64,000 bases of DNA from an uncultured delta proteobacterium. Lineage in GTDB: Bacteria > Desulfobacterota > Binatia > Binatales > Binataceae. Location of the stretch: assembly GCA_963806485.1 (NCBI GenBank), contig CAWDXY010000004.1, positions 893,349-957,348 on the forward strand, written 5' to 3'. This document shows, in pieces, positions 2,950 through 31,276 of this stretch; the stretch's first letter is position 1, and each line of letters opens with the position of its first letter. Below the pieces are notes generated by a model. It did no database searches, was not told the DNA's origin, and saw only the letters and a program-made list of their open reading frames with translations. Both the position numbers and the translations under genes were made by a program.

Positions 2950-2982
2950 GCTGGTAGCTAGCGGACAATCTCGATGACGAAA

Positions 2983-3025: not shown

Positions 3026-3039
3026 GCGACAAAGCCGCA

Positions 3040-3150: not shown

Positions 3151-3362
3151 AATCAAAGCTCAAATCGATAAGGCATCCGACGAACGTTTCGAAATGAACC
3201 GTCGTGTCGGCGGCACCGTCGCTGATTGAGGCTTCAAAACTGTGTGCTCGCCAAGCAAGGTCATCGCGACGAGGGGAGCGTGATGCTCGCCGCCGGGATA
3301 GCTATCGTGCGCCTTCGTGCGCTATCAGAGGGGCAGGGCTATACTTCGCCAGCTGAAACGGT

Positions 3363-6997: not shown

Positions 6998-7046
6998 TTC
7001 TGTGGAGCCGGTGTACAGCAGCAGCCGTCGAACAGCCTGACTCGAA

Positions 7047-8285
7047 CTATGACGCAATTGCGCTAGATACGGACTCGATCGGCTTCTGAGTTCTCGTCGC
7101 CGAAGGAAAATTCAATACATGATCGGCGAGCCTATCTGCGACATCGCTCTCTGAATGCTTCAGGAAATGCGAGTACACAAGAAGCGTGATTGCCGGATTG
7201 GCGTGACCGAGCCGATGCTGCACCTCGGTGATAGGAGCACCACTAGCAATCATGGCCGAAGCGCAACTATGACGAAGGGTATGGAAGGTTACACGGCGTA
7301 ACTTCGCTCGCGAAAGGGCAGGGTAAAATTGGGTCTGGAGCATCTTAGCGCGGGGCATGGGCCTCCCGTCCGCTCCCGGAAATACCAATCCATCCTGCGA
7401 GATCGGACACTGAAGTTTCCAACGCTTGAGCTCCGCGACCAGCAGAGCAGGAATTGAGATCGTTCGGCGGCCTGCTTTGGTTTTCGGTGGAAAGTAGCGC
7501 GGGCGAATTTCCTCGCCCTGCGGCCGCGCCCAGGACAGACTGCGGCGGATCACCATTTTGCCGGAGCCCTCCTTGGGCAGCTCGAGGTCGGTCCAGCGCA
7601 ACGCAAGCAATTCCCCTTCTCTAGCTCCGGTTAAATACGCGGTCTCGAAAAGGGTCCGCTCGAAACCCGGCTTCGCCTCCTGCAACAGAGCTTGAATCTC
7701 TTTCGGGCTCAAGACGCTGTCGGGATCGACGGCGTCTGTACCGGTTCCAAACGTCACATCGTCCGTTTTCAGTTCTCTCGCCGGCTGCACCGCGCGCTCG
7801 ACGCTGTCGACCGGATTCTTGAAGTACTGGCCGCGTTTGATTGCGAGCCGAAACACAGCGCTGACGATCCAGAGAATCCGGTTGATCGTCCGATGCGCGT
7901 ATTGCTCATCGCGCAGCTTGTCTCGAAGCTTCTCCACCGCCTCAACCGTGATCCGATCGAGCTTTTCCTTCCCGAAGACAGGCAGGATCTGTTTGTTAAG
8001 GCGGGTTCGGAAATCGAAGATGTGCGAAGGTCTGCGATCCAGTTTGCTCCTGAACCAATCCTCGGCAACGTCGCCGAAGGTCGGCACTTTTGCGGGCTCG
8101 ACGTAGTCGCCGCGCGAAGCTTTTTGGACGGTCTCGATCTGGAACTGCTCGGGTTGTTTGCGCGTTTTGAAACGGACGCGCCTGCGCGGTCCGAACAGGC
8201 CAAGAGGGCGATAGTCGAGCACCCAGAGGCAGCTACAATCCTTGCCCGAGCAGCTGGCGACGTGGAATTTCCTAATGCTTGCCAT
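7047..8285 (-). CDS. int: tyrosine-type site-specific recombinase / phage integrase
   Basis: C-terminal catalytic region HTLRHSCASAMIASGAPITEVQHRLGHANPAITLLVYSHF (R-H-R-Y family box II signature); N-terminal SAM-like domain. Confidence 0.9.
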   Translation of the reverse strand: MASIRKFHVASCSGKDCSCLWVLDYRPLGLFGPRRRVRFKTRKQPEQFQIETVQKASRGDYVEPAKVPTFGDVAEDWFRSKLDRRPSHIFDFRTRLNKQILPVFGKEKLDRITVEAVEKLRDKLRDEQYAHRTINRILWIVSAVFRLAIKRGQYFKNPVDSVERAVQPARELKTDDVTFGTGTDAVDPDSVLSPKEIQALLQEAKPGFERTLFETAYLTGAREGELLALRWTDLELPKEGSGKMVIRRSLSWARPQGEEIRPRYFPPKTKAGRRTISIPALLVAELKRWKLQCPISQDGLVFPGADGRPMPRAKMLQTQFYPALSRAKLRRVTFHTLRHSCASAMIASGAPITEVQHRLGHANPAITLLVYSHFLKHSESDVADRLADHVLNFPSATRTQKPIESVSSAIAS

Positions 8286-8412
8286 CGCGCATCTTCAGGC
8301 CGACACGACTAGCGTGATGTCGCGACCGACATCCACTCTCCCGGAATGGCAAGAAAATGGCTCATTTACCTTCGCCGGCGTGGGCCTTGAGCAAGCGCAC
8401 GTTCGACGTCGC

Positions 8413-8712
8413 TCAATCTGAAGCGGACGTATTTACCGACCTGACGCTTGGTATTCGACCCAGCCGCTCTTCGGTGCGTACCCAGGACTCGGGCAGATTG
8501 AGATGCCTGGCAAGCTCACCGGCGTTCACGAGGTTCTGCGCGAGATCGGGTTTAGTGGCTTGTTCGTTTGCCTTCGCCGTGGTCTCGGCTAGCCAGCGTG
8601 AAGCCAGGAGAAGTAGAAGACCCGGAATCTGATCGAGCGAGATACGAGCGGCCCATTCAATGAGCACCGGATCGTTCTGCGGAATTGTGTTGCCCTCCGC
8701 CACCGCTACCAA
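8413..8712 (-). CDS. putative excisionase / AlpA-type helix-turn-helix DNA-binding protein
   Basis: Small ORF immediately upstream of int on same strand; HTH-like segment NAGELARHLNLPESWVRTEERLGRIP. Confidence 0.4.
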   Translation of the reverse strand: MVAVAEGNTIPQNDPVLIEWAARISLDQIPGLLLLLASRWLAETTAKANEQATKPDLAQNLVNAGELARHLNLPESWVRTEERLGRIPSVRSVNTSASD

Positions 8713-8736
8713 CCTTCACCGCCAAGAAAAACTTGT

Positions 8737-10005
8737 TCAGCCCGATTCTTCCTCACCCTTCTCCGCAATCACTTCAGCCTTCTTTCCGGTCAGTCTCTCC
8801 CCTCGCGAGATCGCCACGTCGACAAAGCGCGGCTCCAGCTCGATCGCAAAGCAGCGGCGCCCGAGCTGCTCGGCAGCGATGAGTTGCGATCCGCTGCCGC
8901 TGAAAGGTTCGTAACAGAGATCGTCGGGACGGGTGTGCAACTCCATCGGAATCGTAAAGAGCCGGTTCGGCTTCGAGGTAGGATGCTCGCTGCTCTCCAC
9001 CTCGGCGTTCGTGACCTGCCAGACCGTGCCGGGATTGCCATATTTGCGGTCGACCCCGGGCTTCTGACCTTTGATCCAACCGAAGAGGCAGGGCTCGTGC
9101 GCCCACATATAGACTGAGTAAGTTAAAACGGGTCGGCTTTTGAACCAGACGATCTGCTGATGATTGAAAGCCCCGACTTCGTTCCAGACGCCCTCAAGCA
9201 TCGCCTGCCGGGCCGACGCGTGCCAACAATACCAGGCCGCGTTGGGTGCGATCTCGCGTTCGATCGCAACTTTGTAAAAAGCGAGATAGAACGAGCGGCC
9301 GCCATCGCTGCCGCCGTCCTCGTTGTCGAAAGTTGTTTGGCCAGCTTCGTGGTAGACCTTCGACCAGTCCTTGTCGCGGTTGGCTTTGGCCCGGTTCGGG
9401 CGGGTCGCTGGATGCGAGCCGCCAGCGTAGCCGACCGCATACGGCGGATCAGTCGCGAACAGGACCGCCCGCTCATCGCCCATCAAGCGTGAAACGCATT
9501 CCGGTCGCGTGGAATCGCCACACGTGAGCCGATGCTTGCCCAATTGCCAGGTCTGGCCTAAACGCGCCACAGGGCTTGCCGGTGTCGCGGGAATGGCGTC
9601 CTGTGGGGCGTCCTCGCCCAAGGCGAGGCATCTGAGTTCCTTGGGATCGAACGCGGTCAGCTCAGCGAGCGCGCCCAATTCGCTTATCTCCAGCTTGAAT
9701 AATTCATCGTCCCAGCGGGCTTCTTCGCCTGCGCGGTTGTCGGCGATGCGATACGTGCGGCATTGGGCCTCATTTAAATCGGCAGCGACGTGCACCGGGA
9801 CCTCGAGCAAGCCGAGCTTACGTGCTGCGAGCAGTCGGCGATGACCCACCACGATAACGCCGGCGGCATCGACGACGATGGGCTGGCGCCAGCCAAATTC
9901 CTTGATGCTCGCCGCGACCTTGTCGATCGCTGACTGCGGAATCTTGCGCGGGTTCTTCGCGTACGGAAGCGGCCGGTCGATCGGCCAAAGCTCGACTTCC
10001 ATCAT
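8737..10005 (-). CDS. ParB-like nuclease domain fused to DNA N4/N6-methyltransferase (phage-type orphan methylase)
   Basis: N-terminal ParB motif VVGHRRLLAARKLG; methyltransferase motif IV LFATDPPYAVGY and C-terminal SAM motif EPFSGSGSQLIAAEQLGRRCFAIE. Confidence 0.8.
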   Translation of the reverse strand: MMEVELWPIDRPLPYAKNPRKIPQSAIDKVAASIKEFGWRQPIVVDAAGVIVVGHRRLLAARKLGLLEVPVHVAADLNEAQCRTYRIADNRAGEEARWDDELFKLEISELGALAELTAFDPKELRCLALGEDAPQDAIPATPASPVARLGQTWQLGKHRLTCGDSTRPECVSRLMGDERAVLFATDPPYAVGYAGGSHPATRPNRAKANRDKDWSKVYHEAGQTTFDNEDGGSDGGRSFYLAFYKVAIEREIAPNAAWYCWHASARQAMLEGVWNEVGAFNHQQIVWFKSRPVLTYSVYMWAHEPCLFGWIKGQKPGVDRKYGNPGTVWQVTNAEVESSEHPTSKPNRLFTIPMELHTRPDDLCYEPFSGSGSQLIAAEQLGRRCFAIELEPRFVDVAISRGERLTGKKAEVIAEKGEEESG

Positions 10006-10493
10006 GATGCCGTATCCTCCTCCTCTTCATCGTCGAGCAGGTCCGAAAAGAGACTGCCTTGCGCGGGGTTGAGCGACTTCACTTTGCTGCGAGAGGCCGG
10101 CGAGCAGCCGAATTCCACCTCGATCTGGTGCATCGCTTTCGAGCACATCGACATCGCGCTTAGATACGGATTGATGTACGGATTGCCGACGCCGTTGGCT
10201 TTCACTACCAGGCCGCTCTGCTTGATCGCGCGCGCGGCCTCGGCGCGCGTCGAGTACCAGAAACACCAAGTTCCGAACATGGTCAGGTCGAGCCGGGTCA
10301 AAAGGCCCGCCTCGATAAATCGCCTACCCTCGAGAGACCACGCGTGCTTACCGGTGTCGTCGAGAAAATCGGGCGCTCGCGGCATCCGCTTCAGGAGCGG
10401 ACTTTCAGGCTCGTCTTGATTTAGTGGCCGCCGGCTGCCGCGCATGATCTTCAGCGTTGCCGGCGTCGGTCTGCGCCCCCTCATCTGCCCCAC
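10002..10493 (-). CDS. phage terminase small subunit, P27 family
   Basis: N-terminus MGQMRGRRPTPATLKIMRGSRRPLNQDEP matches the P27 terS signature (G-R-P-xP-xxLK-xxG...RPLN); stop overlaps the methylase start. Confidence 0.75.
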   Translation of the reverse strand: MGQMRGRRPTPATLKIMRGSRRPLNQDEPESPLLKRMPRAPDFLDDTGKHAWSLEGRRFIEAGLLTRLDLTMFGTWCFWYSTRAEAARAIKQSGLVVKANGVGNPYINPYLSAMSMCSKAMHQIEVEFGCSPASRSKVKSLNPAQGSLFSDLLDDEEEEDTAS

Positions 10494-10950: not shown

Positions 10951-11526
10951 TCAGGTCTCCAGATCTCCATTCTCAGTCTCTATGCTTCGAAGGGGCTCCG
11001 AAGTCACATCTGACTTAAAGTACTCGGCGACTTGGTAGCGCTCGCCGTACATCTCAAGCAGTCGGTCGAAGAACGGCAAAGGGCGCAACTTCTCCATCTC
11101 CCGCCAAACCCAGGTTATGTTCTTGTCCTTCCGATCGAGCCGCTCCCCGATCTGAAACCGAGCCATGTTCAACACGAGGACAACTTCGCTCTCGTGCTCG
11201 TAATCACAAAATTCAATCGCGGAGAGGTTCGCGATGCCGCTTCGGACTTGTTCGATCGTCAAGCCGGTTTCGTGAGCAACGGTCGGCAGTGGTAAGTAGT
11301 ACAGCCCCAGCGGGTGAGCGCCCGGGCCTGATATCAGGTATAGCGCGAGCACTTGGCACTCCAATCCGAGCCGACGGATCTGCCTGCCGGTAGTTCCGTA
11401 CGAGAAGCCGGGCCTCAACTTGGCAAATTTCCTCATACGATCACCCTTCCCGACGATCGCGCGTCGAGACGAGGCGGAAATTCGCTTTCGACAATGGAGT
11501 CTTGCTCGGGGGGCGACCCCTGTCAT
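10951..11526 (-). CDS. hypothetical protein in integrative element (true start probably internal Met near 11436)
   Basis: ORF in lower-GC island DNA, no recognisable motifs. Confidence 0.35.
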   Translation of the reverse strand: MTGVAPRARLHCRKRISASSRRAIVGKGDRMRKFAKLRPGFSYGTTGRQIRRLGLECQVLALYLISGPGAHPLGLYYLPLPTVAHETGLTIEQVRSGIANLSAIEFCDYEHESEVVLVLNMARFQIGERLDRKDKNITWVWREMEKLRPLPFFDRLLEMYGERYQVAEYFKSDVTSEPLRSIETENGDLET

Positions 11527-12753: not shown

Positions 12754-15486
12754 TCAAGGCCCTGTCCCCGTGAGGCTGATGCTATACGGGCTGCTGGGAT
12801 CGCTGCCTATCGTCACCGCCATGGTGGCGCTTTCGGGCGTGCCGCCGGCCGTCGGTGTGAAGGTCACCGCTATCGTGCACGACGAGTTAGGCAATACCGT
12901 ACCTCCGCACGTGCCGCCGGTCGCCGCGAAGTCGGTCGCGTTCGGTCCGCTGGTGCTGCTCTCACCCACCGATAGCGCGAATCCCGACTTGTTGGTGACA
13001 GTCACGTCCCTGGTCTTCGGCGACGTCCTAGCGGTCAGGGTGCCATACGCCAGCGTGAGCGGCGCGACCGTCGCTGGAATCGTCGCCCCGGTGCTGAGCG
13101 CCACGGTGTACGGACTCAGCGGATCGGGACTGTCTGCGACCGTCAGCGTCGCTGATTCTGAGCCCAGGGCACCCGGCATGAAGGTCACGTAGATCGAGCA
13201 TTCGGTTTTGGCGGCCAGCGTTCCAGTGCAGGTACCGCCGGTGATCGAGAAGTCAGACGCGTTGGTCCCGCTGAAGCTCTCGCTCAGCGTTACCGGCTGG
13301 GTTTGATGATTGACCACGCCGAAGGCCTCGACCTCCTTAAGGCCGAACTGGACCTCGCCGAACGCCAGGCTGCTCTTCGTGGTTGTCAGATCCGCGATGC
13401 CGGTGCCGCTGAGCGCCACGTGTTGCGGGCTGGTAGCGGCGTTGTCGCTAATCGCAAGCGATGCACCATGCGCACCGACCGCGTTGGGCGTGAATGCGAT
13501 TCCCAGCCCGCAATTTGTCCTGGGCGCGACCGTTACGGGAATCGCACCGCATGTCCCTCCTCCCGTAAGGGAATATTCAGAGTCGGACGGTGTCCCGCTC
13601 GAGATGACCAGCGAATGGGTCCTGCCGGTGTTGTAGACCGTCACATTCTTCGCGACCGTCTGACCGACTGCAACGTTGCCGAACGCGCGCGATGCAGTCA
13701 CGGACATCGAGGTAGTCGGCGTCGCGGTCGGGGTTGCAGTTACCGTAGCTGAGACAGTCGCCGTCGCAGTCTGAGTGACCGTGACCGTTGCGGTCGGAGT
13801 TGCTGTTGCAGTCGCAGTCGCCGTAGACGTATCGGTCGCGGTCGCCGTGTTCGTCGCGGTCGCGGTTGCCGTATCGGTCGCCGTGGACGTGTCGGTCGCG
13901 GTGGCCGTGGCAGTCGAGGTTGCTGTTGCGGTCGCAGTTGCAGTTGCGGTGGCCGTTGAAGTTGCCGTCGCCGTAGCTGTCGCAGTCGGTGTTGCCGTTG
14001 CGGTAGTGGTCAAAGTCGGGGTTGCTGTCGCCGTCGCCAGAACGCCGCCATATTCGAACGCGCCGATGTCGCAGGCGTTGTATCCGGGCGCCGGGCGCGC
14101 TGCGCCGCGTTGGTCGGTGGCCGGACAATCGGCAGTCGGGATCGCCGCTATCGCATAGCTGCCCAACTCAAGGGCGATCGTCTGGGTCGGCCCGCCGTTA
14201 TACGCCGGCCCGCCGACGAGCCCCACATCGCTGTAGCTGACGTTATCGCCGATTGTATCGCCGTTGGCGCCCGTGCTGTTTCCAAAGCCGCACCCGGCAT
14301 CGTCGGAAATGTTGTACCCCCCGTTGCTGATGGTGCCACCATTTTCCGTGCTGCAGTTTCCCTCGCCGTTGCCGGCGACCATCGAGTTGGCGACCGTTAG
14401 CGTCCCGAGGCTGCTGGTGCTCGTGATTGCCCCGCTGGCGAAGAGCCCATTGCTACTGTTGCCGACGATGGTGCAGTTGGTAACGGTCACTGCGCCGGAA
14501 CCGTTTTCGAGGATGGCACCGCCGACGCCTCCTTGGGTCGCGCCGTTGCCTACCAAGGTGCTGTTGGTGACTGTGACCGTCCCGCCGCTGTCAAAGATTC
14601 CGCCGCCCCCGTCGCTCTCCTCCGCGCCGTTGCCGTAGAGAGTGCTGCTGGTGACGATCAGAGTGCCGCCGTTAGCGATGGCGCCACCGACGCCTCCGGA
14701 AGTGCTGTTGCCGGAGAGAGTGCTGTTGGTAATGGTCAGCATGCCGCCGTTGCCAATGGCTCCGCCGCCTCCTTGATCCGCCCTGTTGTTGGTGAGAGTG
14801 CTGTTGGTGACGGTCAGCGTGCCGCCGTTAACAATGGCTCCGCCGCCACCGGCGCCGCTGCCGTTGGATGTGCCGTTGCCGGAGAGAGTGCTGTTGGTGA
14901 CGGTCAGCGTTCCGAGGTTATAAATGGCTCCGCCGTTGGACGAGCCCAAGGCGTTGTTGTCGGAGATAGTGCTGTTGGTAAGGGTCAGCGTGCCTTGGTT
15001 AAAGATGCCGCCGCCCTCGTCGGCGACGCTGCAAAGTCCGCCCCCACTGCCGTGGGCGATAGTCAGGTTATTGAGGTTGAGCGTTGCGCTCGAGTTCTCC
15101 ACCACCAGCACCTGAAAAGACTCTCCGCAGGGCAATTGAAACTCCGCCCCGTTCCCACTAATTGTTACGGTCTGGCCGCTCCCATCAATCGTCAGATTGT
15201 TCTGGATCGCGGGAAGTGTGCTGCCCAGCGTAATCGTGCCGTTGACGCTGAACATGATGGTATCGGTGCCGGTGCCCGCGGCGCATCCGTTCACGGCGGC
15301 CTTAGTGTTGGCTGCGGTGATCGCGTCGCGCAGGGCGCAAACTCCCGCCGAGCCTGGGTCAGCCGTCGTGTTGACGATTATAGGTCCGCTCTGCGCTTGC
15401 GAGACCGCCAAAGCCGCGAGCAAACCAGTAGCCAGCAGCGCCAGAGCAACGAACGCAGCGCGCAGTGGTTTTGTTTGTGAATTCAC
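12754..15486 (-). CDS. secreted beta-helix repeat protein with Thr/Ala/Pro linker and C-terminal tandem choice-of-anchor-D domains (paralog of 853..2949 C-terminus)
   Basis: Signal peptide MNSQTKPLRAAFVALALLATGLLAALAVSQA; beta-helix rungs GTLTVTNSTLSGN repeated; C-terminal ~330 aa ~75 percent identical to C-terminus of the 853 protein. Confidence 0.8.
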   Translation of the reverse strand: MNSQTKPLRAAFVALALLATGLLAALAVSQAQSGPIIVNTTADPGSAGVCALRDAITAANTKAAVNGCAAGTGTDTIMFSVNGTITLGSTLPAIQNNLTIDGSGQTVTISGNGAEFQLPCGESFQVLVVENSSATLNLNNLTIAHGSGGGLCSVADEGGGIFNQGTLTLTNSTISDNNALGSSNGGAIYNLGTLTVTNSTLSGNGTSNGSGAGGGGAIVNGGTLTVTNSTLTNNRADQGGGGAIGNGGMLTITNSTLSGNSTSGGVGGAIANGGTLIVTSSTLYGNGAEESDGGGGIFDSGGTVTVTNSTLVGNGATQGGVGGAILENGSGAVTVTNCTIVGNSSNGLFASGAITSTSSLGTLTVANSMVAGNGEGNCSTENGGTISNGGYNISDDAGCGFGNSTGANGDTIGDNVSYSDVGLVGGPAYNGGPTQTIALELGSYAIAAIPTADCPATDQRGAARPAPGYNACDIGAFEYGGVLATATATPTLTTTATATPTATATATATSTATATATATATATSTATATATDTSTATDTATATATNTATATDTSTATATATATPTATVTVTQTATATVSATVTATPTATPTTSMSVTASRAFGNVAVGQTVAKNVTVYNTGRTHSLVISSGTPSDSEYSLTGGGTCGAIPVTVAPRTNCGLGIAFTPNAVGAHGASLAISDNAATSPQHVALSGTGIADLTTTKSSLAFGEVQFGLKEVEAFGVVNHQTQPVTLSESFSGTNASDFSITGGTCTGTLAAKTECSIYVTFMPGALGSESATLTVADSPDPLSPYTVALSTGATIPATVAPLTLAYGTLTARTSPKTRDVTVTNKSGFALSVGESSTSGPNATDFAATGGTCGGTVLPNSSCTIAVTFTPTAGGTPESATMAVTIGSDPSSPYSISLTGTGP
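13746..14064 (-). repeat. low-complexity Thr/Ala codon repeat tract (linker)
   Basis: gtcgcggtcgcc-type repeats; antisense AVAV ORF 13775..14158 is an artefact. Confidence 0.8.
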
Positions 15487-16608: not shown

Positions 16609-17943
16609 TCACTCTATATGGTATCGCTTCCGTTTACGCCAGAGCGTGGGGATGCTTATGCCAAGGGTGGCGGCCGCGTCCTCAAGAGTTGGAGCGACCG
16701 CCAACACCCGCTTGATGTGCTCTTCCTCAAGTTCCTCGAGGCTTGAATCCGCTGATACCTGGATCGGCCGTTGTGTGCTCGGCGCAAAGAGCACGTCAGA
16801 GAGATCTTCCTTGCGTATGACCGTGCCACGACTTAGAACGACCGCGCGCTCCACCACGTTGCGGAGCTCTCTGATGTTCCCTGGCCACGAATATGGGATC
16901 AGGGCCTTCCTGGCCTCTTCTGAGAAATGGAGATCAGAACGGCGATTTCGCGCAGCCGCCTCGGACAATAGCTTCTCGGCTAACGGCAAGATGTCTTCGG
17001 GGTGCTCGCGTAACGCGGGCACCCGGAGGCTAATCACGTTGAGCCGGTAATACAGGTCAGCTCGGAAGCGACCGGCGGCGATTTCCTGTTGCAGATCGCG
17101 ATTAGTGGCAGCGATGACGCGTGTGTCAACTGAAATCGTCTCTTGCCCTCCGATCCTCTCGAAACATCCGTCCTGTAAGAAACGAAGGAATTTTGTCTGA
17201 AGAGATAGCGACAGTTCCGCGAGCTCGTCAAGAAAAAGCGTGCCCTTATTCGCCGCTTCGAGCCGACCGGGCTTGTCCTTGATCGCGCCCGTGAAAGACC
17301 CTTTCATGTGGCCGAACAGTTCGCTTTCCAGCAGATGTTCCGAAAGCGTGGTGCAATTCACAGTGACAAAAGGGTGCTGGTGTCGAGGGCTCCATCCATG
17401 TATCTGACGAGCGAGTACATTCTTGCCAGTACCGCTCTCGCCCGTGAGCAGAATACTCGCTTCGCTGGCAGCCGCTGTGAACGTGACTTCGATCAGCTCA
17501 CGAAATCGAGAGCTGGCGGAAGCCAGCAACGGAACGCCATCGATTGAGTCGCGCAGCGCACGATTTTGAGCGCGCAACTCCTTGACCTCGAGAGCGCGCT
17601 CAACTGCGTGCTGCACCTGATCGAGGGAAAAAGGTTTGGTGAAATAGTCGTGTGCGCCCGCCTTCATCGCCGCGACAGCGTTATCGATGGTGCCGTAGGC
17701 GGTCATGAGAATCACAACCGTGTCGGGAAACTTCTGTTTGATGGTCTTGAGCAGCTCGAGGCCATTCATCTCGGCCATTCGCCAATCGCTCAATACCAAA
17801 TCGAAGTCACCGCACTTCGACATTAGATCCAGCGCCTGACGACCGCTGTCCGCCGTGGCCACCTTGTAGTTGCATGACTCAAGGAATCTGGCGACCCCCT
17901 GCCTGATGTTCTTTTCGTCGTCGACGATGAGCAGCTTAGCCAT
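16609..17943 (-). CDS. sigma-54-dependent response regulator (NtrC family: receiver + AAA+ sigma-54 activator + Fis-type HTH)
   Basis: Receiver motifs VDDE, LVLSDWRM, ILMTAYG, FTKPF; Walker A GESGTGKN; GSFTGA (GAFTGA variant); C-terminal HTH. Confidence 0.9.
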   Translation of the reverse strand: MAKLLIVDDEKNIRQGVARFLESCNYKVATADSGRQALDLMSKCGDFDLVLSDWRMAEMNGLELLKTIKQKFPDTVVILMTAYGTIDNAVAAMKAGAHDYFTKPFSLDQVQHAVERALEVKELRAQNRALRDSIDGVPLLASASSRFRELIEVTFTAAASEASILLTGESGTGKNVLARQIHGWSPRHQHPFVTVNCTTLSEHLLESELFGHMKGSFTGAIKDKPGRLEAANKGTLFLDELAELSLSLQTKFLRFLQDGCFERIGGQETISVDTRVIAATNRDLQQEIAAGRFRADLYYRLNVISLRVPALREHPEDILPLAEKLLSEAAARNRRSDLHFSEEARKALIPYSWPGNIRELRNVVERAVVLSRGTVIRKEDLSDVLFAPSTQRPIQVSADSSLEELEEEHIKRVLAVAPTLEDAAATLGISIPTLWRKRKRYHIE

Positions 17944-19088
17944 CAGACGTCCCTTGAAGTGGGCAGCGTTAACGTAACCTTGCAGCCGCTTTCCAGTGTT
18001 TCCGCGAACAGTCTCCCTCCATGCGCCTCGATGATTTCCTTCGCGATGGCGAGGCTGATTCCGGTCCCAAGGCTTTGCAAATCGCTATTGGCCTCGGTCG
18101 GACTATCAAAGACCAGTTCCAGTACCTGCGGTGGAATTTCAGACCCGCTGTCCCAAACAGATATTCTGATCTGGTCGTCTTCCTCCTCTGCGGTCAAAGC
18201 GATGTTTCCCATTTCAGGCGTGTAGCGCACCGCATTGCCGACGAGAGTGGCTATCACCCACAACAGCTTCAGCGGGTCACCTGAGACTCTGAGGTTCCTT
18301 TCGGCGTGCACATCAAATTTGATTTTCCGACGTTCGATCCGATTTCTAAACTTTCTGGAAACGACCTTGAAGATAGTCCAAAGGTCAAATCCTACCTGAC
18401 GAAACGCTACTGACCTGGGTTGCTCACGTATGAAGTTCAGAAAATCAGCAGATAGGCGATTTAGCCGATCGACATCTTCCACAATTTCGCGAATCAACTC
18501 GGTCTGCCGCTCTCCGGTGCGTTGCAAGAGTCCCACCGCCAGGGACACGGAGGTCAAAGGCGTGTTGAGCTCCTGAGCTACTGACACTACCGTGTCGTTT
18601 CGGAACCTGCTTTTATCGAAAAGCTTTGAAAGATGGCGAAGTACGACGAAGGTTCCGAAGGTACTGCGGTCGCTCCTTCGCAGACGAGCCGTCTTCAAAA
18701 CATAGCTGCGCTCGCAACCCTCTACGTTCAGACCAAGTTCAATCTGCCACTCGTCTCGGGGACAACCCCTTACCCCTGTGAGGGCGGCTCGGATGCGCGC
18801 ACAACTCATGCTGTGACGGTCAAGGTCGTCGTTAAACGGTTGACCGACGATCTGATCGCGTTCGACAGCCAGGATTTCGGCCGCCGGCTGATTCAGGTGA
18901 ATTACAGTTTCAGTCTCGTCGAGGACAAACGCGGCTTCATCGAGACAATCGACTATCGCCGCGACACGATCATCACTATCGCTAAAGGCCCTTTCGGTTC
19001 CCACAGCGAACACCCCGTCGGCGCTTTGCGCCGCCTGACACTTTCTGACTCTAAGCCGGCGGCGCTCCGAAGTGCTTGCGCAGCTCAA
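17943..19088 (-). CDS. PAS-domain sensor histidine kinase homolog whose H-box His is replaced by Gln; true start probably downstream of 19051
   Basis: H-box reads VSVAQELNTPLTSV (CAG at 18573-18575) where HisKA consensus is S-H-E-L-R-T-P-L; intact N box GNAVRYT, G1 DSGSEIP, G2 GTGISLAIAKEIIEAHGG; stop overlaps RR start. Confidence 0.8.
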   Translation of the reverse strand: MSCASTSERRRLRVRKCQAAQSADGVFAVGTERAFSDSDDRVAAIVDCLDEAAFVLDETETVIHLNQPAAEILAVERDQIVGQPFNDDLDRHSMSCARIRAALTGVRGCPRDEWQIELGLNVEGCERSYVLKTARLRRSDRSTFGTFVVLRHLSKLFDKSRFRNDTVVSVAQELNTPLTSVSLAVGLLQRTGERQTELIREIVEDVDRLNRLSADFLNFIREQPRSVAFRQVGFDLWTIFKVVSRKFRNRIERRKIKFDVHAERNLRVSGDPLKLLWVIATLVGNAVRYTPEMGNIALTAEEEDDQIRISVWDSGSEIPPQVLELVFDSPTEANSDLQSLGTGISLAIAKEIIEAHGGRLFAETLESGCKVTLTLPTSRDV

Positions 19089-20070
19089 GGTTGACCTGGA
19101 GCACGTTCACCATGTTTTCGCCCACTAGTCCGTAGAGAGGGGCGGATGTGTCAGCCTGCAATATCTGTTCGATCTCCGTCCGCACCTGACCTTCGTCGCG
19201 CTTGGTGTCCTTCGCCCATGCAGAAGACACTCGATCAAGCTGATACTCTGCGTTTTGTAGCGTGATGTTGGGATCCAGGCCTGACGCCGAGGTTGTTACC
19301 ATATCTCCGGGCACGTCCTGGAGATTCGCGTCAGGATTTTCCTGCCGCCACATATCAAAGAAGTTCGACTGAATGTCAGAGCCGCTGGCAACTGGGTGAA
19401 TCACTGTCTGAGTCTTTCCACCCGGGAGCTGATTTGTAACAGCTGAGGGGAACTTACCGGGAGTGTCCTTCGAGAAGTTTTCAAAAAAGACGACCGCTAG
19501 ATCCGAAGCCTGGGGCTGGGGCGTTCCCGGATTCTGCTTGATCCAATCCTTTACCACCGCGTCATGGTCCTTGGCCCAATCGGTCACATATTGCGCGTGT
19601 GTCGGATCCGCACTCACCCACGCCTGCGCGAGTTCATTATGATTGTCGGCCCACTGTGCGACTATATGAGGCTGCCCCCCGAACTTATCCTGCTGAAACC
19701 ATGCTTCGATATCCGGCGCAACCAATTGTCCTTTCTTCGGCTCCTCGCCGTACTTGACGATCGGACCAAGCATATTTGCGACCCGATTTCGAAGCGCATA
19801 GTTCGATGCTGCCAGGGCGGACGACGCTGATGCGGAACCATCATAAGACGCGGCAGAAGGTCGGGGCTGAAAGTATTCGTCCTTGGTGAACGGTTGTGCG
19901 ATCAACAGCGAGCCCACCGGTTTGCCGTCTGGCCCGTCTACCATGCTGCCGTTGGCGGTAAACGGGAAAAACGTTTGCCCGATTGCCAATACTGCTAGAG
20001 GGTAAATCAGACAGCAGATCACAACCGAGACGCCCAGGAGAAATAAGCTCTTTGAAATGTAGCTACGCAT
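19051..20070 (-). CDS. kdpC: potassium-transporting ATPase subunit C, long form with internal insertion
   Basis: N-terminal IYPLAVLAIGQTFFPFTANGSMVDGPDGKPVGSLLIAQPFT...FQPRPSAA and C-terminal VPGDMVTTSASGLDPNITLQNAEYQLDRV...VNVLQVNLEL match KdpC ends; 339 aa vs typical ~190. Confidence 0.85.
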   Translation of the reverse strand: MRSYISKSLFLLGVSVVICCLIYPLAVLAIGQTFFPFTANGSMVDGPDGKPVGSLLIAQPFTKDEYFQPRPSAASYDGSASASSALAASNYALRNRVANMLGPIVKYGEEPKKGQLVAPDIEAWFQQDKFGGQPHIVAQWADNHNELAQAWVSADPTHAQYVTDWAKDHDAVVKDWIKQNPGTPQPQASDLAVVFFENFSKDTPGKFPSAVTNQLPGGKTQTVIHPVASGSDIQSNFFDMWRQENPDANLQDVPGDMVTTSASGLDPNITLQNAEYQLDRVSSAWAKDTKRDEGQVRTEIEQILQADTSAPLYGLVGENMVNVLQVNLELRKHFGAPPA

Positions 20071-20090: not shown

Positions 20091-22247
20091 TTACGCGATC
20101 AAGTGCATCGAGCTCAGCACGACATCGATCAGTTTGATGCCGATAAAGGGTAGAATGACGCCACCTAAGCCCCAGATTACGAGATTTCTGCGCAGCAGAG
20201 CGTCAGCGCCAAGAGGCCTGTATTTGACGCCTTTCAGTGCTATGGGAATCAGGGCAGGAATAATGACAGCATTGAAGATGACCGCCGACAGGATCGCAGA
20301 CGTAGGCGAATGCAAGTGCATGACGTCCATAGCCTTGAGCCACGGCAGAGTGCCGGCGAAGAGGGCCGGCACGATCGCGAAATATTTTGCTACGTCGTTC
20401 GCCACTGAAAAGGTCGTCAGGGCGCCGCGCGTCATCAGCAACTGCTTGCCTATCTCGACGACTTCAATCAGCTTGGTCGGGTCCGAATCGAGGTCGACCA
20501 TGTTGCCCGCTTCCTTGGCCGCCTGAGTTCCGGAATTCATCGCCACGCCGACGTCTGCCTGGGCGAGTGCCGGGGCATCATTGGTGCCATCGCCCATCAT
20601 CGCGACCAGTTTGCCATCGGCCTGTTCTTTGCGAATGTACGCGAGCTTGGATTCCGGTGTGGCCTGAGCCACGAAGTCGTCTACCCCCGCACGCTTTGCG
20701 ATGGTCGCCGCGGTTAGAGGATTGTCGCCAGTGATCATCACCGTTCTGAGACCCATGGTGCGCAGACGCTCGAAACGTTCACGCATCCCAGTCTTCAGAA
20801 TGTCTTCGAGCACCACCACACCAACGATGTTGGAATTCTCGGCTACCGCCAGCGGTGTCGCGCCGCTGGAAGCGATCTCGTTAACGATTTGATCCAGCCC
20901 GTTGGGAATTGTGCCACCGTTCCGCCGCGCGAACGCCACGACTGCGTCTGCAGCGCCCTTGCGGATATTGCGGCCGTCCGCCAGGTCAACTCCGCTCATC
21001 CTGGTCTGTGCACTGAAATCAATAAACTTCGCGCCTGCTGGCGGGTTCAGTTCGCCGAGAGTGACGCCATCAGCCACCGCTTGCGTAACGATGCTTTTAC
21101 CTTCGGGAGTCTGATCAGCCGTCGAGGCAAGCGCGGCGAGAAGAGCTACCTTCGCTTTGGAATAGGCGCCCACCGGCCGGAAGTCGGTCGCGCGGCGATT
21201 GCCGACCGTGATCGTTCCGGTCTTGTCGAGCATCACGGTATCGATGTCGCCGGCCGTCTCTACTGCCTTGCCGCTCTTGGCGAGAATGTTCGCTTGCAGA
21301 GCGCGGTCCATTCCCGCGATCCCAATCGCGGCAAGCAATGCTCCGATCGTTGTCGGGATCAAACAGACCAAGAGCGCGACCAGGGTTGGTACATCAGTTC
21401 CGAGACTCTTAACGGGGGCTGGAAGGCCCAGGTATCCCATCATGTATTGCTCAGCGTTCCACGCGAGCGGCCACAGGGGAACAACGACGATAAAGAACGC
21501 GACTGTAAGTCCCGAGAGCACGAGCGTCAGCGCAATTTCGTTAGGTGTCTTCTGGCGAACGGCACCTTCGACCAGAGCGATCATGCGGTCGAGAAAGGCC
21601 TGTCCAGGCAGCGCGGTGACTTTCACTACGATTCGATCCGAGATAACTCGCGTCCCTCCGGTAACTCCGGACCGATCACCGCCGGCCTCGCGAATGACCG
21701 GAGCAGATTCGCCGGTGATAGCTGCTTCATCAACTGAGGCGATTCCTTCGACTACGTCTCCGTCACTAGGAATGACCTGGCCGGCTGTGACCACTACGCG
21801 GTCGCCTGGTTTCAAATCGGTCGATCGGACTTCTTCGAGACTGTTGCGAGTCGTTAGCCGGTACGCGGGTGTCTCGCTGCGGGTCTTGCGCAAGGAGTCG
21901 GCCTGGGCTTTGCCACGCGCCTCTGCGAGTGCAGTAGCAAAGTTGGCAAAGAGTACGGTTAGCCAAAGCCAGAAGTCGAGCCCGATGAAATAGCTGATTG
22001 GAACCTGGCTCGCAGAGGCGCCCATTGCCGCTTGTATGATAAACAGCAGCGTAAGAACCGCGCCGATCTCGACCACAAACATGACCGGATTGGCCCACTG
22101 GATGTCCGGGCGGAGCATCACGAAGGATTGCTTCAACGCTTGGCGCACCAGCTCAGGCTCGAACAACGCGCGGCTTCTTATTCGCCGCGGAGGCGGCAAC
22201 GGTGTCGGCGCTTCACTCCTCTGTATTGATTGAACTGCTGCTCCCAT
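20091..22247 (-). CDS. kdpB: potassium-transporting P-type ATPase subunit B
   Basis: P-type ATPase motifs [23 protein letters not shown]; KdpB-specific N-terminal region. Confidence 0.95.
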
Positions 22248-22318: not shown

Positions 22319-24136
22319 CTATCCGCCGAATGGAATAGGACCTAAGTGTTCTGCGAGAGGACCGAGCGCAGCCACAGGAAGGAACAACAGCGCGCCGACG
22401 ATGACGATCGTTCCAAAGAGCAGGCAGCCGAACGTAAAAGTGTCGTCACGAAGGGTTCCCAGCCCGAACGGAGTACTTTTCTTCAATCCAAGGAACGCTG
22501 CCATCGCGATCGGAGCGACGATCGGCAGATAGCGACCGAACAGGATCACCAGACCGCCTCCGATGTCCCACGGGACCGCCTCGGGTGCCGGACTTGTGTT
22601 GTTATTCAGTCCATAGCTCACGCCCAAGCCATCGAAGGCTGAGCCGTTGTTCGCCGATGATGACGAGAACTGATAAACGATTTGCGAAAGACCGTGGGCG
22701 CCCGGATTGCTCTCCGCCTTGATGCCCCAATTCGTTGCCGCGTAGAGTCCCGATGGTCCCAGAATCAGGAAGGGATGGACCAGCAGGGCGATCATCGCGA
22801 GCTTCACCTCGCGAGCGCCGATCTTCTTGCCCAGGTACTCCGGCGTTCGTCCAACCATCTGTCCGGCCAAAAAGACGCCGATGATGAGGAACAGCAGCAA
22901 GTTGATCATGCCGACGCCTTTGCCGCCATAAATGCAGTTGAGCCACATGCCCCAGAATGGCGAGAGCGCTGCGATAGGATTCAGGCTGTCATGCTCGCAG
23001 TTCACCGCACCGCAAGTCACATCGACCGTAGCAGCAGCAAAGGTAGCACCAGCCGAGGTCCCGAAACGCAGCTCCTTGCCCTCGAGATTGCCAAGGTGCT
23101 GATCGACCGGTAGTCCGGCCACGGCGGGAAGAGTAATGACCTGCTTTCCACCCGGCGCACCGGCGTTCGCGATCGTAAATGTCCGGCTCACGGGATGGGC
23201 AGTCAGACCCGGGTTGGGTTGCATGGTGTCGAAGTAGATCGCCCAGACAACTGTGCCGACGAATAACGTCAGCATGACCCCAAAAATCACAATCGAGTGA
23301 CGCAGCCTCCCCAGCATGCGTCCGTACATGAGCACGAGCGCCATCGGGAACAGCATCATGCAGAAGGTCTCGAAGAAATTTGTGCCTGCGCCCGGATTCT
23401 CGAAAGGATGAGCCGAATTCATGCCGAAAAATCCGCCGCCGTTGGTTCCCATCATTTTCATCGGGACGAAAGCAGCTAGTGGCCCCATTACGATGTTCTG
23501 CTGTTTGGGCTGATTGTTGTTGTCCAGCCCCATCGCAGCGGGTTCAAGCGTCGTGACCGTTTGGACGTTCTGATAGGTCATCGGCATCCCCTGTACGAGG
23601 AAGACCATCGAGATCACGAACGCCGCGGGTAGAAAGAAATAAACCACCACTCGCCACATATCGAGGAAGTAGTTGCCGAGATGAGAATCGCCGCGCAGCG
23701 CGCGGATTATGGCAGTAAGAGCGCATAAGCCGACCGCGGCAGAAAGAAAGAAGTTCGCTATACAAAAGAAGATCTGGCTGAAAATCGAGAAGGCTACGTC
23801 TCCCGAATAGTGCTGCATGTTCGTGTTCGTGATGAACGAGATCACACTATGGAAGATTGTGGTCGGCGCCAGCATTCCGAGTCCGCGCGGGTTAAGCGGC
23901 ATCCACGGCTGCAGCGAAAGCACCATATAGCCGTAAACGAACAGAGCTACGTTGAAAACTAAGAGAGCGAGCGTGTACTGTGTCCAACTCATCGGGCCAG
24001 AATCCAGGCGCTTCTCAAACCACTGCAAAACGCCCGGGGCGCGGTACTTGCCGTCCATGATCTTTGCCATATAGCTGCTGAGCGGAATGGCTATGGCGAT
24101 AGTGAAGACGATTATAGAAATGGGCAGAAGCCACAT
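22319..24136 (-). CDS. kdpA: potassium-transporting ATPase subunit A
   Basis: 605-aa polytopic membrane protein with KdpA selectivity-filter-like segments (MGTNGGGFFGMNSAHPFENP). Confidence 0.95.
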   Translation of the reverse strand: MWLLPISIIVFTIAIAIPLSSYMAKIMDGKYRAPGVLQWFEKRLDSGPMSWTQYTLALLVFNVALFVYGYMVLSLQPWMPLNPRGLGMLAPTTIFHSVISFITNTNMQHYSGDVAFSIFSQIFFCIANFFLSAAVGLCALTAIIRALRGDSHLGNYFLDMWRVVVYFFLPAAFVISMVFLVQGMPMTYQNVQTVTTLEPAAMGLDNNNQPKQQNIVMGPLAAFVPMKMMGTNGGGFFGMNSAHPFENPGAGTNFFETFCMMLFPMALVLMYGRMLGRLRHSIVIFGVMLTLFVGTVVWAIYFDTMQPNPGLTAHPVSRTFTIANAGAPGGKQVITLPAVAGLPVDQHLGNLEGKELRFGTSAGATFAAATVDVTCGAVNCEHDSLNPIAALSPFWGMWLNCIYGGKGVGMINLLLFLIIGVFLAGQMVGRTPEYLGKKIGAREVKLAMIALLVHPFLILGPSGLYAATNWGIKAESNPGAHGLSQIVYQFSSSSANNGSAFDGLGVSYGLNNNTSPAPEAVPWDIGGGLVILFGRYLPIVAPIAMAAFLGLKKSTPFGLGTLRDDTFTFGCLLFGTIVIVGALLFLPVAALGPLAEHLGPIPFGG

Positions 24137-24173: not shown

Positions 24174-24254
24174 CTAGAACCACTCGGGCCGGATCATCGC
24201 GGCCAACAGGTAAATAAATACCAACGCGGCCACTATCGCTGTCATGATTATCAT
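24174..24254 (-). CDS. kdpF: potassium-transporting ATPase subunit F (26 aa)
   Basis: Minus-strand ORF MIIMTAIVAALVFIYLLAAMIRPEWF directly upstream of kdpA; single-TM peptide resembling KdpF; not in ORF track (too short); coordinates +/- 2 nt. Confidence 0.75.
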   Translation of the reverse strand: MIIMTAIVAALVFIYLLAAMIRPEWF

Positions 24255-24263
24255 CGCTGCCTC

Positions 24264-24359
24264 CTAGATCTTCTCGCACGCGACCAAAAACGCGAAACAG
24301 AGGCCGAGGCTGATGAGCCCCAAGAGGAACGTCCCAGGCAACCAGATGGCCACATCCAT
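24264..24359 (-). CDS. conserved 31-aa hydrophobic mini-protein upstream of kdpF (copy 1)
   Basis: ORF MDVAIWLPGTFLLGLISLGLCFAFLVACEKI; stop 9 nt before kdpF start with GGAGG in between; paralogous ORF before second kdp operon keeps frame and hydrophobicity. Confidence 0.55.
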   Translation of the reverse strand: MDVAIWLPGTFLLGLISLGLCFAFLVACEKI

Positions 24360-24533
24360 AGATTCATCCTACCTTTCCGCAAGCGATGAGCTGGCGGCAT
24401 GCTTCTCGAGATTCAGTTCAGCTGCCCTCAAAGCCTTTCGGATAGCCGAACGTAGACAACTCCGATTAAGAAAATTGCTACCGTTATGCCGACGAAAAGC
24501 ATGTCGAGCATGGTTCTCAAGCCTCAGGAGCAA

Positions 24534-24552
24534 GGCAGCACAAACCATGCCT
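24534..24552 (-). promoter_or_regulatory. candidate sigma-54 (-24/-12) promoter for kdp operon 1
   Basis: Minus strand reads AGGCATGgtttGTGCTG vs consensus TGGCACGnnnnTTGCW with conserved GG and GC at correct spacing, ~170 nt upstream of the mini-ORF. Confidence 0.25.
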
Positions 24553-24782: not shown

Positions 24783-25796
24783 TTATTGAGGCTGTCCGAA
24801 ACGGCTTGCTAATTGCAAATTGACTTGAAGAACATTGACAAATTTTTCCCCAAACAAGCCTCCTAGAGGAGCCGATGCGTTCGCCTCGAGTATTTGCTCG
24901 ATTTGATCGTGCACCTGTTTCGGGTCCAGTTTTTTATCGGCAGCCCATTTCTGAGAGACGCGATCCAGCTGATATTCCGCATTATCTAGAGTGATATGCG
25001 GGTCGAGGCCTGAGGCCGACGAGGTAACCATGTCACCGGGGACATCCTGGAGCGCTGCGTCTGGATGGTCTTGTCTCCACATGTCGAAGAAGATCGATTG
25101 CACATCCGATCCACTTGCGACCGGCTCGATGTCGGTCTGCGATTTGCCATTAGGCAGCTGCTTGGTCACTGGCGATGGGAACTTGCCGGGATTGTCCTTG
25201 GAGAAATTCTCGAAAAACAGTACAGCCAGGTCCGAGGGCTGTGGCTGTGGTGTGCCCGGATTCTGCTTGATCCACTCGTCCACCGCGCTCTTATGACTTT
25301 TGGACCAGTCAGTTACGTACTGAGCGTGAGTAAGATCGGCGCTTATCCATCCTTGCGCCAGCTCGTTGTGATCGTCAGCCCATTGTGCAACGAGATGCGG
25401 CTGACCCTGGAATTGATCTTTCTGAAACCACGCCTCGACATCCGGCGCAACCAACTGGCCAGCTTCGGGGCCGACCTTATATTTCACGATAGGTCCCAAT
25501 TGCCGGGCCACTCTGTCTCGTAGCGCGTAGTTAGATGCAGCGAGCGCCGATGAAGTACTGGCTGAGGCATCGTACGATGCCGCTGAGGGCCGTGGCCAGA
25601 AGTACTCGTCCTTTGTGAACGGCTGTGCGATCAACAGTGAGCCGACCGACTTGCCATCCGGTCCTGTGACCATGCTGCTATTGGCGGTAAAGGGAAAGAA
25701 GGTCTGGCCGATCGCCCACACTGCAAGCGGATAGGCTATCGCGCAAACTACGACTGTCGCAGTTAGGAGTATCAGGCTTTTGACTATGTTTCGCAT
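24783..25796 (-). CDS. kdpC: potassium-transporting ATPase subunit C, second copy (long form)
   Basis: ~75 percent identical to 19051..20070 product incl. the internal insertion. Confidence 0.85.
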   Translation of the reverse strand: MRNIVKSLILLTATVVVCAIAYPLAVWAIGQTFFPFTANSSMVTGPDGKSVGSLLIAQPFTKDEYFWPRPSAASYDASASTSSALAASNYALRDRVARQLGPIVKYKVGPEAGQLVAPDVEAWFQKDQFQGQPHLVAQWADDHNELAQGWISADLTHAQYVTDWSKSHKSAVDEWIKQNPGTPQPQPSDLAVLFFENFSKDNPGKFPSPVTKQLPNGKSQTDIEPVASGSDVQSIFFDMWRQDHPDAALQDVPGDMVTSSASGLDPHITLDNAEYQLDRVSQKWAADKKLDPKQVHDQIEQILEANASAPLGGLFGEKFVNVLQVNLQLASRFGQPQ

Positions 25797-30008: not shown

Positions 30009-30104
30009 CTAGATCTTTTCGCAACCGATCAAGAACAGATAGCAGAGACCTAGGCCGGCAAGCCCGAGCAGAAAAGTCCCTGGCAACCAAGTCCAAAGAT
30101 CCAT
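30009..30104 (-). CDS. conserved 31-aa hydrophobic mini-protein upstream of kdpF (copy 2)
   Basis: ORF MDLWTWLPGTFLLGLAGLGLCYLFLIGCEKI; LPGTFLLGL and CEKI-stop conserved with copy 1. Confidence 0.55.
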   Translation of the reverse strand: MDLWTWLPGTFLLGLAGLGLCYLFLIGCEKI

Positions 30105-30829: not shown

Positions 30830-31276
30830 ACAGGTCGATTGGTTGCCGAGATCCTTTATCGTGAGAGGAGCAGGAACTATGCCTTAGACCGAAGTCAGCC
30901 AATATCAAGTGCTTTTCTCTGCTAAGCCGTTGTCCCACCTCGAGCGTGAAACCCAGGCATTTCAGCGTGAAATCAAATCGGGGTCTTTGCGAGGCGAGTT
31001 CGGCTGATCGCAAATTGACTGCGAACCTATCACCAGGACCGCACCTCTGAGGTTGCGGCCCCACGAGCACCGACCTTCAAGAACTGTCGCGTTACCTGGT
31101 ATATGCGACCGCCATTTCAAAATGAACGATGGACGCTATTCAAAAAGAAATCGCGTGTGCGCAGAGTAAACCACAACTCAAGCAAATCGCAGCTTTTTTC
31201 GAACGGCACACGCTATGCAGATGAATTACAGACGCCGATGCCGCTTCCGAGGATGCGGCAGAGGCCGGGAGAAGTG

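Follow-up and report, generated by a model that had tools for sequence, protein, structure and literature searches.

A glutamine at the phospho-acceptor site: a predicted pseudo-histidine kinase family, old and maintained by selection, in the kdp operons of Binataceae

What can a histidine kinase homolog do once the histidine itself is gone? The question is raised by a gene on the minus strand (positions 17943-19004) of a 64-kb stretch of DNA from an uncultured member of the Binataceae (64,000 nucleotides of contig CAWDXY010000004.1, referred to here as the window), where two kdp operons lie in tandem and it stands at the end of the second. In the column of its HisKA domain that should hold the phospho-acceptor histidine there is a glutamine, Gln144 (Gln172 in the uncorrected open reading frame (ORF) of 381 residues), encoded by CAG at 18573-18575 (minus strand), and the remnant of the H-box (18549-18581, minus) reads V-A-Q-E-L-N-T-P-L-T-S in the alignment, or V-V-S-V-A-Q-E-L-N-T-P-L-T-S if taken more widely. 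A first-pass annotation of this DNA had already pointed to the replacement, which both the sequence and the alignment of homologs bear out. It had offered two kinds of reading: a pseudo-kinase or phosphatase that depends on another phosphodonor, which the comparative data presented below favor, and a recent inactivation, which they do not. On comparative grounds the gene belongs to an ancient, selectively maintained His-to-Gln pseudo-histidine kinase family of the Binataceae kdp operons.

The mechanical ORF (17943-19088, minus), which reads VVSVAQELNTPLTSV around the H-box, begins at a TTG at 19088. The N-termini of its orthologs align to MGTE..., equivalent to a GTG at 19004, so that the product is probably a protein of 353 residues whose gene is clear of kdpC. 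Pfam recognizes a PAS domain, a HisKA domain (E 6.5e-11, 42.6 bits against a cutoff of 26.9) and a HATPase_c domain (E 4e-21), and it was this architecture, together with the ortholog N-termini, that delimited the gene. The protein is soluble, without a transmembrane segment (Kyte-Doolittle maximum of 1.1 with a 19-residue window). Its N-terminal PAS domain (18630-18971, minus; Pfam PAS/PAS_4) is followed by the helical hairpin of the dimerization and histidine phosphotransfer (DHp) domain (18405-18593, minus; delimited by Pfam HisKA and by conservation), the predicted module for dimerization and regulator docking, and by a catalytic and ATP-binding (CA) domain of the HATPase_c type with a decayed ATP lid (17958-18281, minus; from Pfam, alignment and fold). 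In the AlphaFold2 monomer the PAS domain (predicted local distance difference test, pLDDT, of about 75-83) and the CA domain are confidently modeled; the pLDDT of the DHp domain, about 50, is what one expects for a dimeric hairpin and makes the model unusable for active-site geometry. The overall fold is that of an ordinary PAS-type histidine kinase, with WalK, VicK, ThkA and HK853 among the Foldseek and PDB matches and a TM-score of 0.83-0.86 between its CA domain and that of ThkA. RetS and DivL are also among the closest solved structures, and the NifL-NifA complex ranks 47th among the fold matches. The nearest sequence match of known structure is ThkA (TM1359, PDB 3a0r; E 2.6e-39), likewise a soluble PAS-DHp-CA protein, whose structure was determined as a complex with its regulator; unlike the window protein, however, it has the histidine (VAHEIRNPIT) and intact ATP boxes.

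How widespread is the glutamine? A search of 5.8 billion proteins produced about 45 relatives of roughly 350 residues (in what follows P-numbers denote homologous proteins and L-numbers contig loci carrying homologs). When the window protein is aligned with 89 homologs, Gln144 falls in a column that is His in all of the relatives of ~600 residues, and Gln in about 40 orthologs of 50-80% identity (P0001-P0035, P0037, P0040, P0071); the NCBI names of cluster members place these in Candidatus Binataceae or Candidatus Binatus. An alignment with orthologs was the check that the first-pass annotation had proposed for the codon, and it finds Gln fixed across the clade. The DNA of five Q-type genes could be compared (window, L165, L166, L001 and L002) and all five have CAG, whereas the codon is CAT or CAC in the His-type loci L003 and L086 and AAC in the Asn-type loci L169 and L167, every one of them a single-base step from CAY. 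Since synonymous divergence (dS) between pairs of Q-type genes amounts to 0.4-1.6, the change to Gln must be old. There is no other phospho-acceptor histidine in the DHp domain, the only histidines of the protein being residues 36, 64, 124, 233 and 328, and the earlier claim that autophosphorylation at the canonical position would be impossible is thus supported by the loss of the residue.

The residues around Gln144 have had very different fates. In the Gln clade conservation is about 0.9 for the glutamine and about 0.9-1.0 for T-P-L-T-S, as against about 0.2 at H+1, which is Glu in the window copy and E, Q, R, K, H or Y in the clade at large. Thr148, at H+4, is kept in at least 90% of a separate family alignment of 37 sequences, with P0079 as the only exception, and T151, S152, L155, L159, L160 and R162 of the DHp domain are invariant there. 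Within the Gln clade little or no variation is seen in Gln, LNTPLTS, GDPxKLxW or the N box. The ATP-binding region has fared less well, and the first-pass description of the N, G1 and G2 boxes as intact was mistaken. The sole canonical ATP box is the N box, with Asn257 retained (18234-18236, minus). The G1 box is DSGSE(I) (18138-18152, minus) in place of DxGxG, and differs from the DSGPGI of the orthologs by CCT GGA -> TCT GAA; G2 is GTGISL (18051-18068, minus) in place of GxGLGL, thus GxGxS rather than GxGxG; and the F box is lost, with VFDS where the His-bearing relatives have LFERF. Degeneration of the F and G2 boxes is clade-wide and that of G1 an additional feature of the window copy, the Asp and Gly of G1 (nucleotide contacts) and the Asn of the N box being still conserved in the clade. 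Set against what a functional HisKA kinase needs, the protein has a HisKA profile match and an adjoining Asp-bearing response regulator, but neither the acceptor histidine nor intact ATP boxes. With the histidine, the F box and the G2 box lost and the acidic residue at H+1 unconstrained, we would not expect it to be able to act as a kinase.

A neighbor-joining tree of the short and long forms shows where these proteins stand. The soluble forms of ~350 residues are monophyletic and sister to HAMP-PAS kinases of ~600 residues, all of which have H-E; among the top-ranked relatives whose H-boxes were read individually, His is present in every longer one, and in one short representative, P0136, the His is retained together with a Gly at H+1. 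The short forms divide into a branch with Asn (P0045, P0049, P0056, P0079) or Glu (P0085) at the acceptor site and another in which His-bearing members (P0038, P0041-44) are paraphyletic to the Gln clade, which itself has a Glu pair (P0036, P0039) nested inside it. The existence of the Asn/Glu branch and a separate Gln clade implies that the histidine has been lost at least twice. An exhaustive profile search for the short form over 1.84 billion cluster representatives found only about a dozen clusters at 50% identity, most of them without His. The short and long forms are about 35% identical, and the soluble PAS-DHp-CA gene seems best regarded as a paralog of the membrane-bound HAMP-PAS kinase of the kdp regulatory module. 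Scanning metagenome contigs with the family alignment gave three close loci among the matches listed, plus long His-type operons; a scan of genome contigs with the single protein gave only kinases of 24-33% identity, mostly from Firmicutes, and back-translated patterns were too specific, except for AKEIIEAH. The most degenerate member, P0079 (L167/L168, 10001-11095), has the H-box LSNGLREPLTS and is found after kdpABC, with a gene for a flavodoxin-like reductase next to it.

Is the short protein, then, simply decaying? The pseudo-kinase gene has a ratio of nonsynonymous to synonymous divergence (dN/dS) of 0.26 against L165 (dS 0.40) and of 0.33 against L166 (dS 0.59), and in the latter comparison the partner regulator gene gives 0.054, a relaxation of the pseudo-kinase relative to its regulator of about fivefold. 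Similarly, the window shares 58-70% identity with L001, L002 and L166 in the pseudo-kinase and 91-95% in the regulator. The ratio of kinase to regulator divergence is 3.9-8.2 for Gln-Gln pairs, 2.7 for the short His pair and 0.9-1.6 for long His-type pairs. Nevertheless, dN/dS stays below 0.5 in all domains, with its minimum (0.09-0.26) in the DHp core. Taken together, the divergence ratios and dN/dS indicate that the pseudo-kinase is relaxed but under purifying selection; as far as codon comparisons can tell, it is strongly relaxed yet clearly not neutral. The constraint is also unevenly placed. Mean pairwise column identity in the two DHp helices, alpha1 and alpha2, is 0.81 and 0.81 in the Gln clade against 0.77 and 0.68 in the long His forms, whereas for the PAS domain it is 0.59 against 0.75, for the F box and ATP lid 0.45 against 0.81, and for G2 0.78 against 0.95; with the CA domain of the Gln clade at 0.69, the DHp domain is the best-conserved region. 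A kept fold, missing catalytic residues and maintenance by selection are what can be asked of a pseudo-histidine kinase at the level of sequence, and all three are found here.

The partner is a quite different matter. Immediately after kdpA2 (22319-24136), kdpB2 (20091-22247), kdpC2 (19051-20070) and the pseudo-kinase gene comes a gene for a sigma54-dependent response regulator (16609-17943; all minus strand), made up according to Pfam of a receiver (REC) domain, an AAA+ domain (GSFTGA) and HTH_8, and its start codon shares one base, at 17943, with the stop codon of the pseudo-kinase gene. This regulator was said in the first-pass annotation to keep its phosphorylatable aspartate, and so it does: D53 lies in LVLSDWRM (codon 17785-17787), accompanied by D8/D9, T81 and K103, and none of the partner regulators examined lacks the DD pair, D53, T81 or K103. 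The order kdp genes, short gene, sigma54 regulator is found in eight loci with short-form genes, namely the Gln-type loci L001, L002, L166 and L171/172, the His-type loci L003 and L086 and the Asn-type locus L169, although L166 is a shorter contig and the synteny holds over its extent; in all of the Gln-type contexts examined the gene comes after kdp genes and, if the contig reaches further, before a regulator of this type. Long His-type kinases also occur in kdp operons (L088-L103, and L170, a Binataceae contig), upstream of an orthologous regulator of 62-65% identity, and are preceded there by a free-standing KdpD_N+Usp protein of about 385-392 residues (for example, L094 4094-5248 and L170 1888-3066). 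The arrangement in L094 and L170 is that of a "split KdpD" with an NtrC-type output in place of KdpE. A single operon in L003 combines a short His-bearing protein, the regulator and a long His-bearing kinase. The kdp operons of these lineages thus carry what, from domain content and gene order, is a sigma54-type regulatory module distinct from KdpD/KdpE.

What function would leave such a pattern? Experiments on other HisKA proteins have assigned separate roles to the H-box residues: Willett & Kirby found the acidic residue at H+1 to be needed for kinase activity only, and the Thr or Asn at H+4 for phosphatase activity only, in CrdS, two other Myxococcus kinases and HK853 (PMC3510030). Even without its histidine, CrdS H371A remained mostly active as a phosphatase, the half-life of the phosphorylated regulator being 2.6 min, as compared to 0.7 min with the wild type and 53.5 min without CrdS (PMC3510030). 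In the Binataceae protein the kinase elements are lost or drifting while the H+4 Thr and the DHp surface are kept and the receiver is competent, a combination that favors a docking protein that lowers the level of phosphorylated regulator; Thr at H+4 and a conserved DHp docking surface are also the features by which a phosphatase-competent HisKA protein would be recognized from sequence. We therefore prefer, at about an even chance, to see here a kinase-dead pseudo-histidine kinase that docks on its response regulator, probably as a dedicated phosphatase, with the phosphodonor elsewhere. The protein would dimerize via its DHp domain, dock on the receiver domain of the neighboring sigma54 activator and set the level of its phosphorylation, most probably by catalyzing dephosphorylation, an activity that the PAS domain might gate. 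Acetyl phosphate, or a long His-bearing paralog such as occurs in the Binataceae (L170), would donate the phosphoryl group, and the phosphorylated regulator would drive the sigma54 promoter before kdpFABC2.

The nature of the replacing residues invites a further step. The dedicated phosphatases orient a water molecule by means of such residues as those of the DxxxQ motif in CheZ, ExxN in CheX, Q47 in RapH and DxxxQ in NarX, and the Gln, Asn and Glu that have taken the place of His belong to the same amide and acid types. Gln and Thr may accordingly orient the attacking water together, as the amide residues do in CheZ, CheX, RapH and NarX, and we would entertain, more tentatively and at well under an even chance, a dedicated family of HisKA-fold phosphatases in which the His site has been repeatedly converted to Gln, Asn or Glu, aiding the H+4 Thr in water positioning.

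Several observations weigh against reading the protein as a phosphatase. The substitutions at the His site amount to only 3-4 independent events, so that the Q/N/E pattern is suggestive and not statistically significant. PleC H610A loses its phosphatase along with its kinase activity (PMC3510030), so that loss of the histidine need not leave a HisKA protein with phosphatase activity. HisKA phosphatases are stimulated when ADP occupies the CA domain (PMC7005713); here the ATP lid is degenerate, as is G1 in the window copy. The PAS-to-DHp linker, through which the signal is normally transmitted, is poorly conserved, with a mean pairwise column identity of 0.48 in the Gln clade against 0.94 in the long His forms. 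Moreover, no other kinase or receiver domain occurs within the 64-kb window, and the Asn-type lineage of P0079 (L167/168) has neither the H+4 Thr nor an adjoining response regulator.

Another possibility is that the protein works in the manner of NifL, as an anti- or co-activator whose stoichiometric binding, via the DHp and CA domains, switches the AAA+ activity of its partner according to a PAS signal and/or the adenine-nucleotide ratio and leaves the phosphoryl group untouched. NifL, a PAS-DH-GHKL kinase homolog that neither adds nor removes phosphoryl groups, indeed acts on the sigma54 activator NifA through binding and senses ADP (PMC10372690); the partner here is likewise a sigma54 enhancer-binding protein, the DHp domain is the part best conserved, the N-box Asn and the G1 Asp and Gly persist in the clade, and the NifL-NifA complex is itself among the fold matches. 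However, NifA has a GAF domain and no receiver, whereas the receiver of our regulator is fully canonical and very strongly conserved, which argues that phosphorylation still matters. In addition, pure binding does not require the conserved Gln and H+4 Thr, and the decayed ATP lid, with the broken G1 of the window copy, can only weaken nucleotide sensing; on balance we hold this explanation to be rather unlikely, if by no means far-fetched. An indirect effect on phosphorylation is conceivable too, with the short protein as heterodimer partner or competitor of a long His-bearing paralog and thus a modulator of a true kinase, as in RetS-GacS, DivL-CckA and ChrS-HrrS. The short and long paralogs are nearly identical at the DHp alpha1 specificity positions (T, S, L, A/S and L after the H-box), L003 encodes both forms around a single regulator, the ChrS pseudokinase does heterodimerize with HrrS and rely on cross-phosphorylation (PMC9491836), and RetS and DivL are structurally close. 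Nonetheless, the short and long forms share little overall identity, and neither the 64-kb window nor the surroundings, out to 10 kb, of the Q-type genes of L001, L002 and L171/172 contain a long kinase, for which reasons this modulator role appears improbable.

Perhaps, alternatively, the gene has no function at all and is a dead kinase drifting toward loss, retained merely by its position between kdpC and the regulator gene, for instance through translational coupling. Its evolution at 4-8 times the rate of its partner, the decay of the catalytic boxes with the extra damage to G1 in the window copy and the stop/start overlap at 17943 are all as such a relic would have them, but the ORF is full-length in all of the full-length members examined (about 35 Q-type sequences of >340 residues), the overall dN/dS of 0.26-0.33 falls to 0.09-0.26 in the DHp domain, and neutral drift at dS of at least 1 would have erased motifs such as Gln, LNTPLTS, GDPxKLxW and the N box, which are near-invariant. 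A functionless relic is thus very unlikely. As for an error in sequencing or assembly, or a normal kinase inactivated recently in this strain alone, either would need only one base change (CAY->CAG), but Gln is fixed in about 40 orthologs and recurs across dozens of independent assemblies with protein identities of 56-80%, purifying selection acts on the gene, and the ATP lid is degenerate alongside. This suggestion of the first-pass annotation is refuted, and we accord it virtually no probability. A Ser/Thr-kinase activity of the RsbW/SpoIIAB kind and direct regulation of KdpB were considered as well and set aside, the lid being degenerate and only the P0079 lineage being without an adjoining regulator.

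With respect to known systems, the preferred reading, that of a kinase-dead docking protein and probable phosphatase, finds its nearest counterparts in the CrdS mutants (H371A/E372A) acting on CrdA and in HK853, with which the Binataceae protein shares a HisKA DHp domain, an H-box of the form x-E-L-x-T-P-L, a Thr or Asn at H+4 and, in the case of the NtrC-type CrdA, a sigma54 enhancer-binding partner that has a receiver domain. The CrdS mutants without the His or the H+1 acid kept their phosphatase activity (PMC3510030). They differ in that the Binataceae genotype, kinase-negative and putatively phosphatase-positive, is natural, fixed in a clade, coupled to decay of the ATP lid and based on Gln rather than Ala, its activity being predicted from sequence. 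NifL is comparable as a soluble PAS, DHp-like and GHKL homolog without kinase activity that is encoded beside its sigma54 activator (PMC10372690), but it has kept nucleotide binding, has FAD-PAS domains and controls a GAF-containing NifA in place of a phosphorylatable receiver protein; no specific sequence relationship between it and the pseudo-kinase was found beyond the shared fold. DivL, RetS, RocA, RedE and the ChrS pseudokinase also do without autophosphorylation, signaling instead through binding to a regulator or to a second kinase (PMC2755868, PMC9491836), DivL having Tyr at the His position and RedE acting as a phosphatase (PMC2755868, PMC9491836). However, they differ in domain architecture, in partners and in the pathways they serve (cell cycle, virulence, development), and none of them is linked to kdp or has Gln or Asn at the His site. 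Finally, KdpD/KdpE occupy the same position at the 3' end of the kdpFABC operon and, like the present pair, presumably control its transcription, but the pseudo-kinase lacks the KdpD_N, Usp, transmembrane and GAF portions of KdpD and has only a PAS domain before HisKA (it scores 75.6 with the NCBIfam KdpD model, whose cutoff is 1123), its operon encodes no KdpD_N domain, and KdpE is of the OmpR type rather than a sigma54 enhancer-binding regulator. We found no published account of sigma54/NtrC-type control of kdp, of signaling in the Binatia or of this pseudo-kinase family.

A candidate sigma54 promoter (AGGCATGGTTTGTGCT; -24 GG/-12 GC) is located at 24537-24552 (minus), upstream of several small ORFs and kdpA2, and a site is conserved at the equivalent position in L001 (GGGCACGCTTTATGCT) and L002 (GGGCACACTTTATGCT). 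Across the window, the sigma54 consensus has 28 matches as against 29 expected, thus no enrichment, and the support for the promoter is accordingly that of positional conservation only. There is no GG-N10-GC site upstream of kdpA1, the first gene of the other operon (kdpA1/B1/C1, 24783-29871, minus), which lies in tandem with the second. Of the two operons, only the downstream one has the pseudo-kinase and regulator genes and a recognizable sigma54-like promoter. Among the small ORFs, one of 26 residues (24174-24254, minus) is kdpF-like, and Pfam recognizes Potass_KdpF at the equivalent place in L171. Another, of 31 residues and hydrophobic (MDVAIWLPGTFLLGLISLGLCFAFLVACEKI, 24264-24359, minus), precedes both kdpA copies (the other at ~30020-30100) and is also present in L167 and L169; a third, of ~27 residues (MLDMLFVGITVAIFLIGVVYVRLSERL, within 24428-24520, minus), comes directly after the candidate promoter and is conserved in L001 and L002.

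The KdpC proteins of both operons (KdpC1, 24783-25796, and KdpC2, 19051-20070; minus) are unusually long, about 338 residues or ~150 more than the Pfam KdpC model, and the splitting of the Pfam match into two stretches points to an internal insertion. Long KdpC proteins are found in L002, L003, L086, L167 and L169 as well, and the usual form of ~198 residues in other Binataceae kdp operons (the second copy of L001/L171, and L170). The kdp copies of L001/L171 are of different types, one with a long KdpC and the other with a short KdpC and a KdpA of 36% identity. In L002 each of the kdpB copies (1021-3187 and 6741-8898) is split in two ORFs at a matching relative position, and in L001 the N-terminus of the regulator is disrupted (11062-11150); these are probably assembly frameshift errors rather than biology.

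Elsewhere in the window there is a second candidate for a regulatory module, by which, in the first-pass annotation, a recent inactivation of the kinase might have been buffered: a receiverless sigma54 enhancer-binding protein (33900-34904, plus) preceded by a 156-residue ORF (33354-33824). For the latter the first-pass label "Usp-like" has no Pfam backing even at E<=5, and its only match is a faint one to DacZ_P (E 0.007). A weak P-II-like match (E 0.0014) was obtained for the ORF at 31103-31633, and a small protein binding cyclic nucleotides is encoded at 32556-33026 (minus). Downstream of the regulator gene, the region 7047-10493 (minus) contains a phage-type integrase, a fusion of ParB-N with a DNA methylase and a terminase small subunit, and resembles the remnant of a prophage or mobile element; between it and the regulator gene is a gene for a 910-residue beta-helix/Ig-like repeat protein (12754-15486, minus). 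A fusion of a nucleotide cyclase domain with an AAA_16 (STAND-type) ATPase is encoded at 3833-6496 (plus).

Only a handful of pseudo-histidine kinases (DivL, NifL, RocA, RetS and RedE) have been studied, and the present family offers a natural experiment of some interest: His-bearing and His-less members share an operon context, the histidine has been lost at least twice, and the residues that mutagenesis has linked to kinase activity (His, the H+1 acid and the ATP lid) have decayed, whereas the H+4 Thr and the DHp surface, which it has linked to phosphatase activity and docking, have been kept. For annotation, the label "sensor histidine kinase" is unsuitable for the Gln-type proteins. The gene arrangements also indicate a sigma54-dependent regulation of kdp by other means than KdpD/KdpE, in the Binataceae and in several other metagenomic lineages. 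If the protein is indeed a phosphatase, it would represent an evolutionary conversion of a two-component kinase into a dedicated phosphatase, and, if the amide or acid at the His site takes part in this activity, a convergence with CheZ, CheX, RapH and NarX. The kdp circuit of the Binataceae would then have no cognate kinase in its operon; acetyl phosphate or a paralogous kinase would supply the phosphoryl groups, and sensing itself would fall to the PAS-gated phosphatase.

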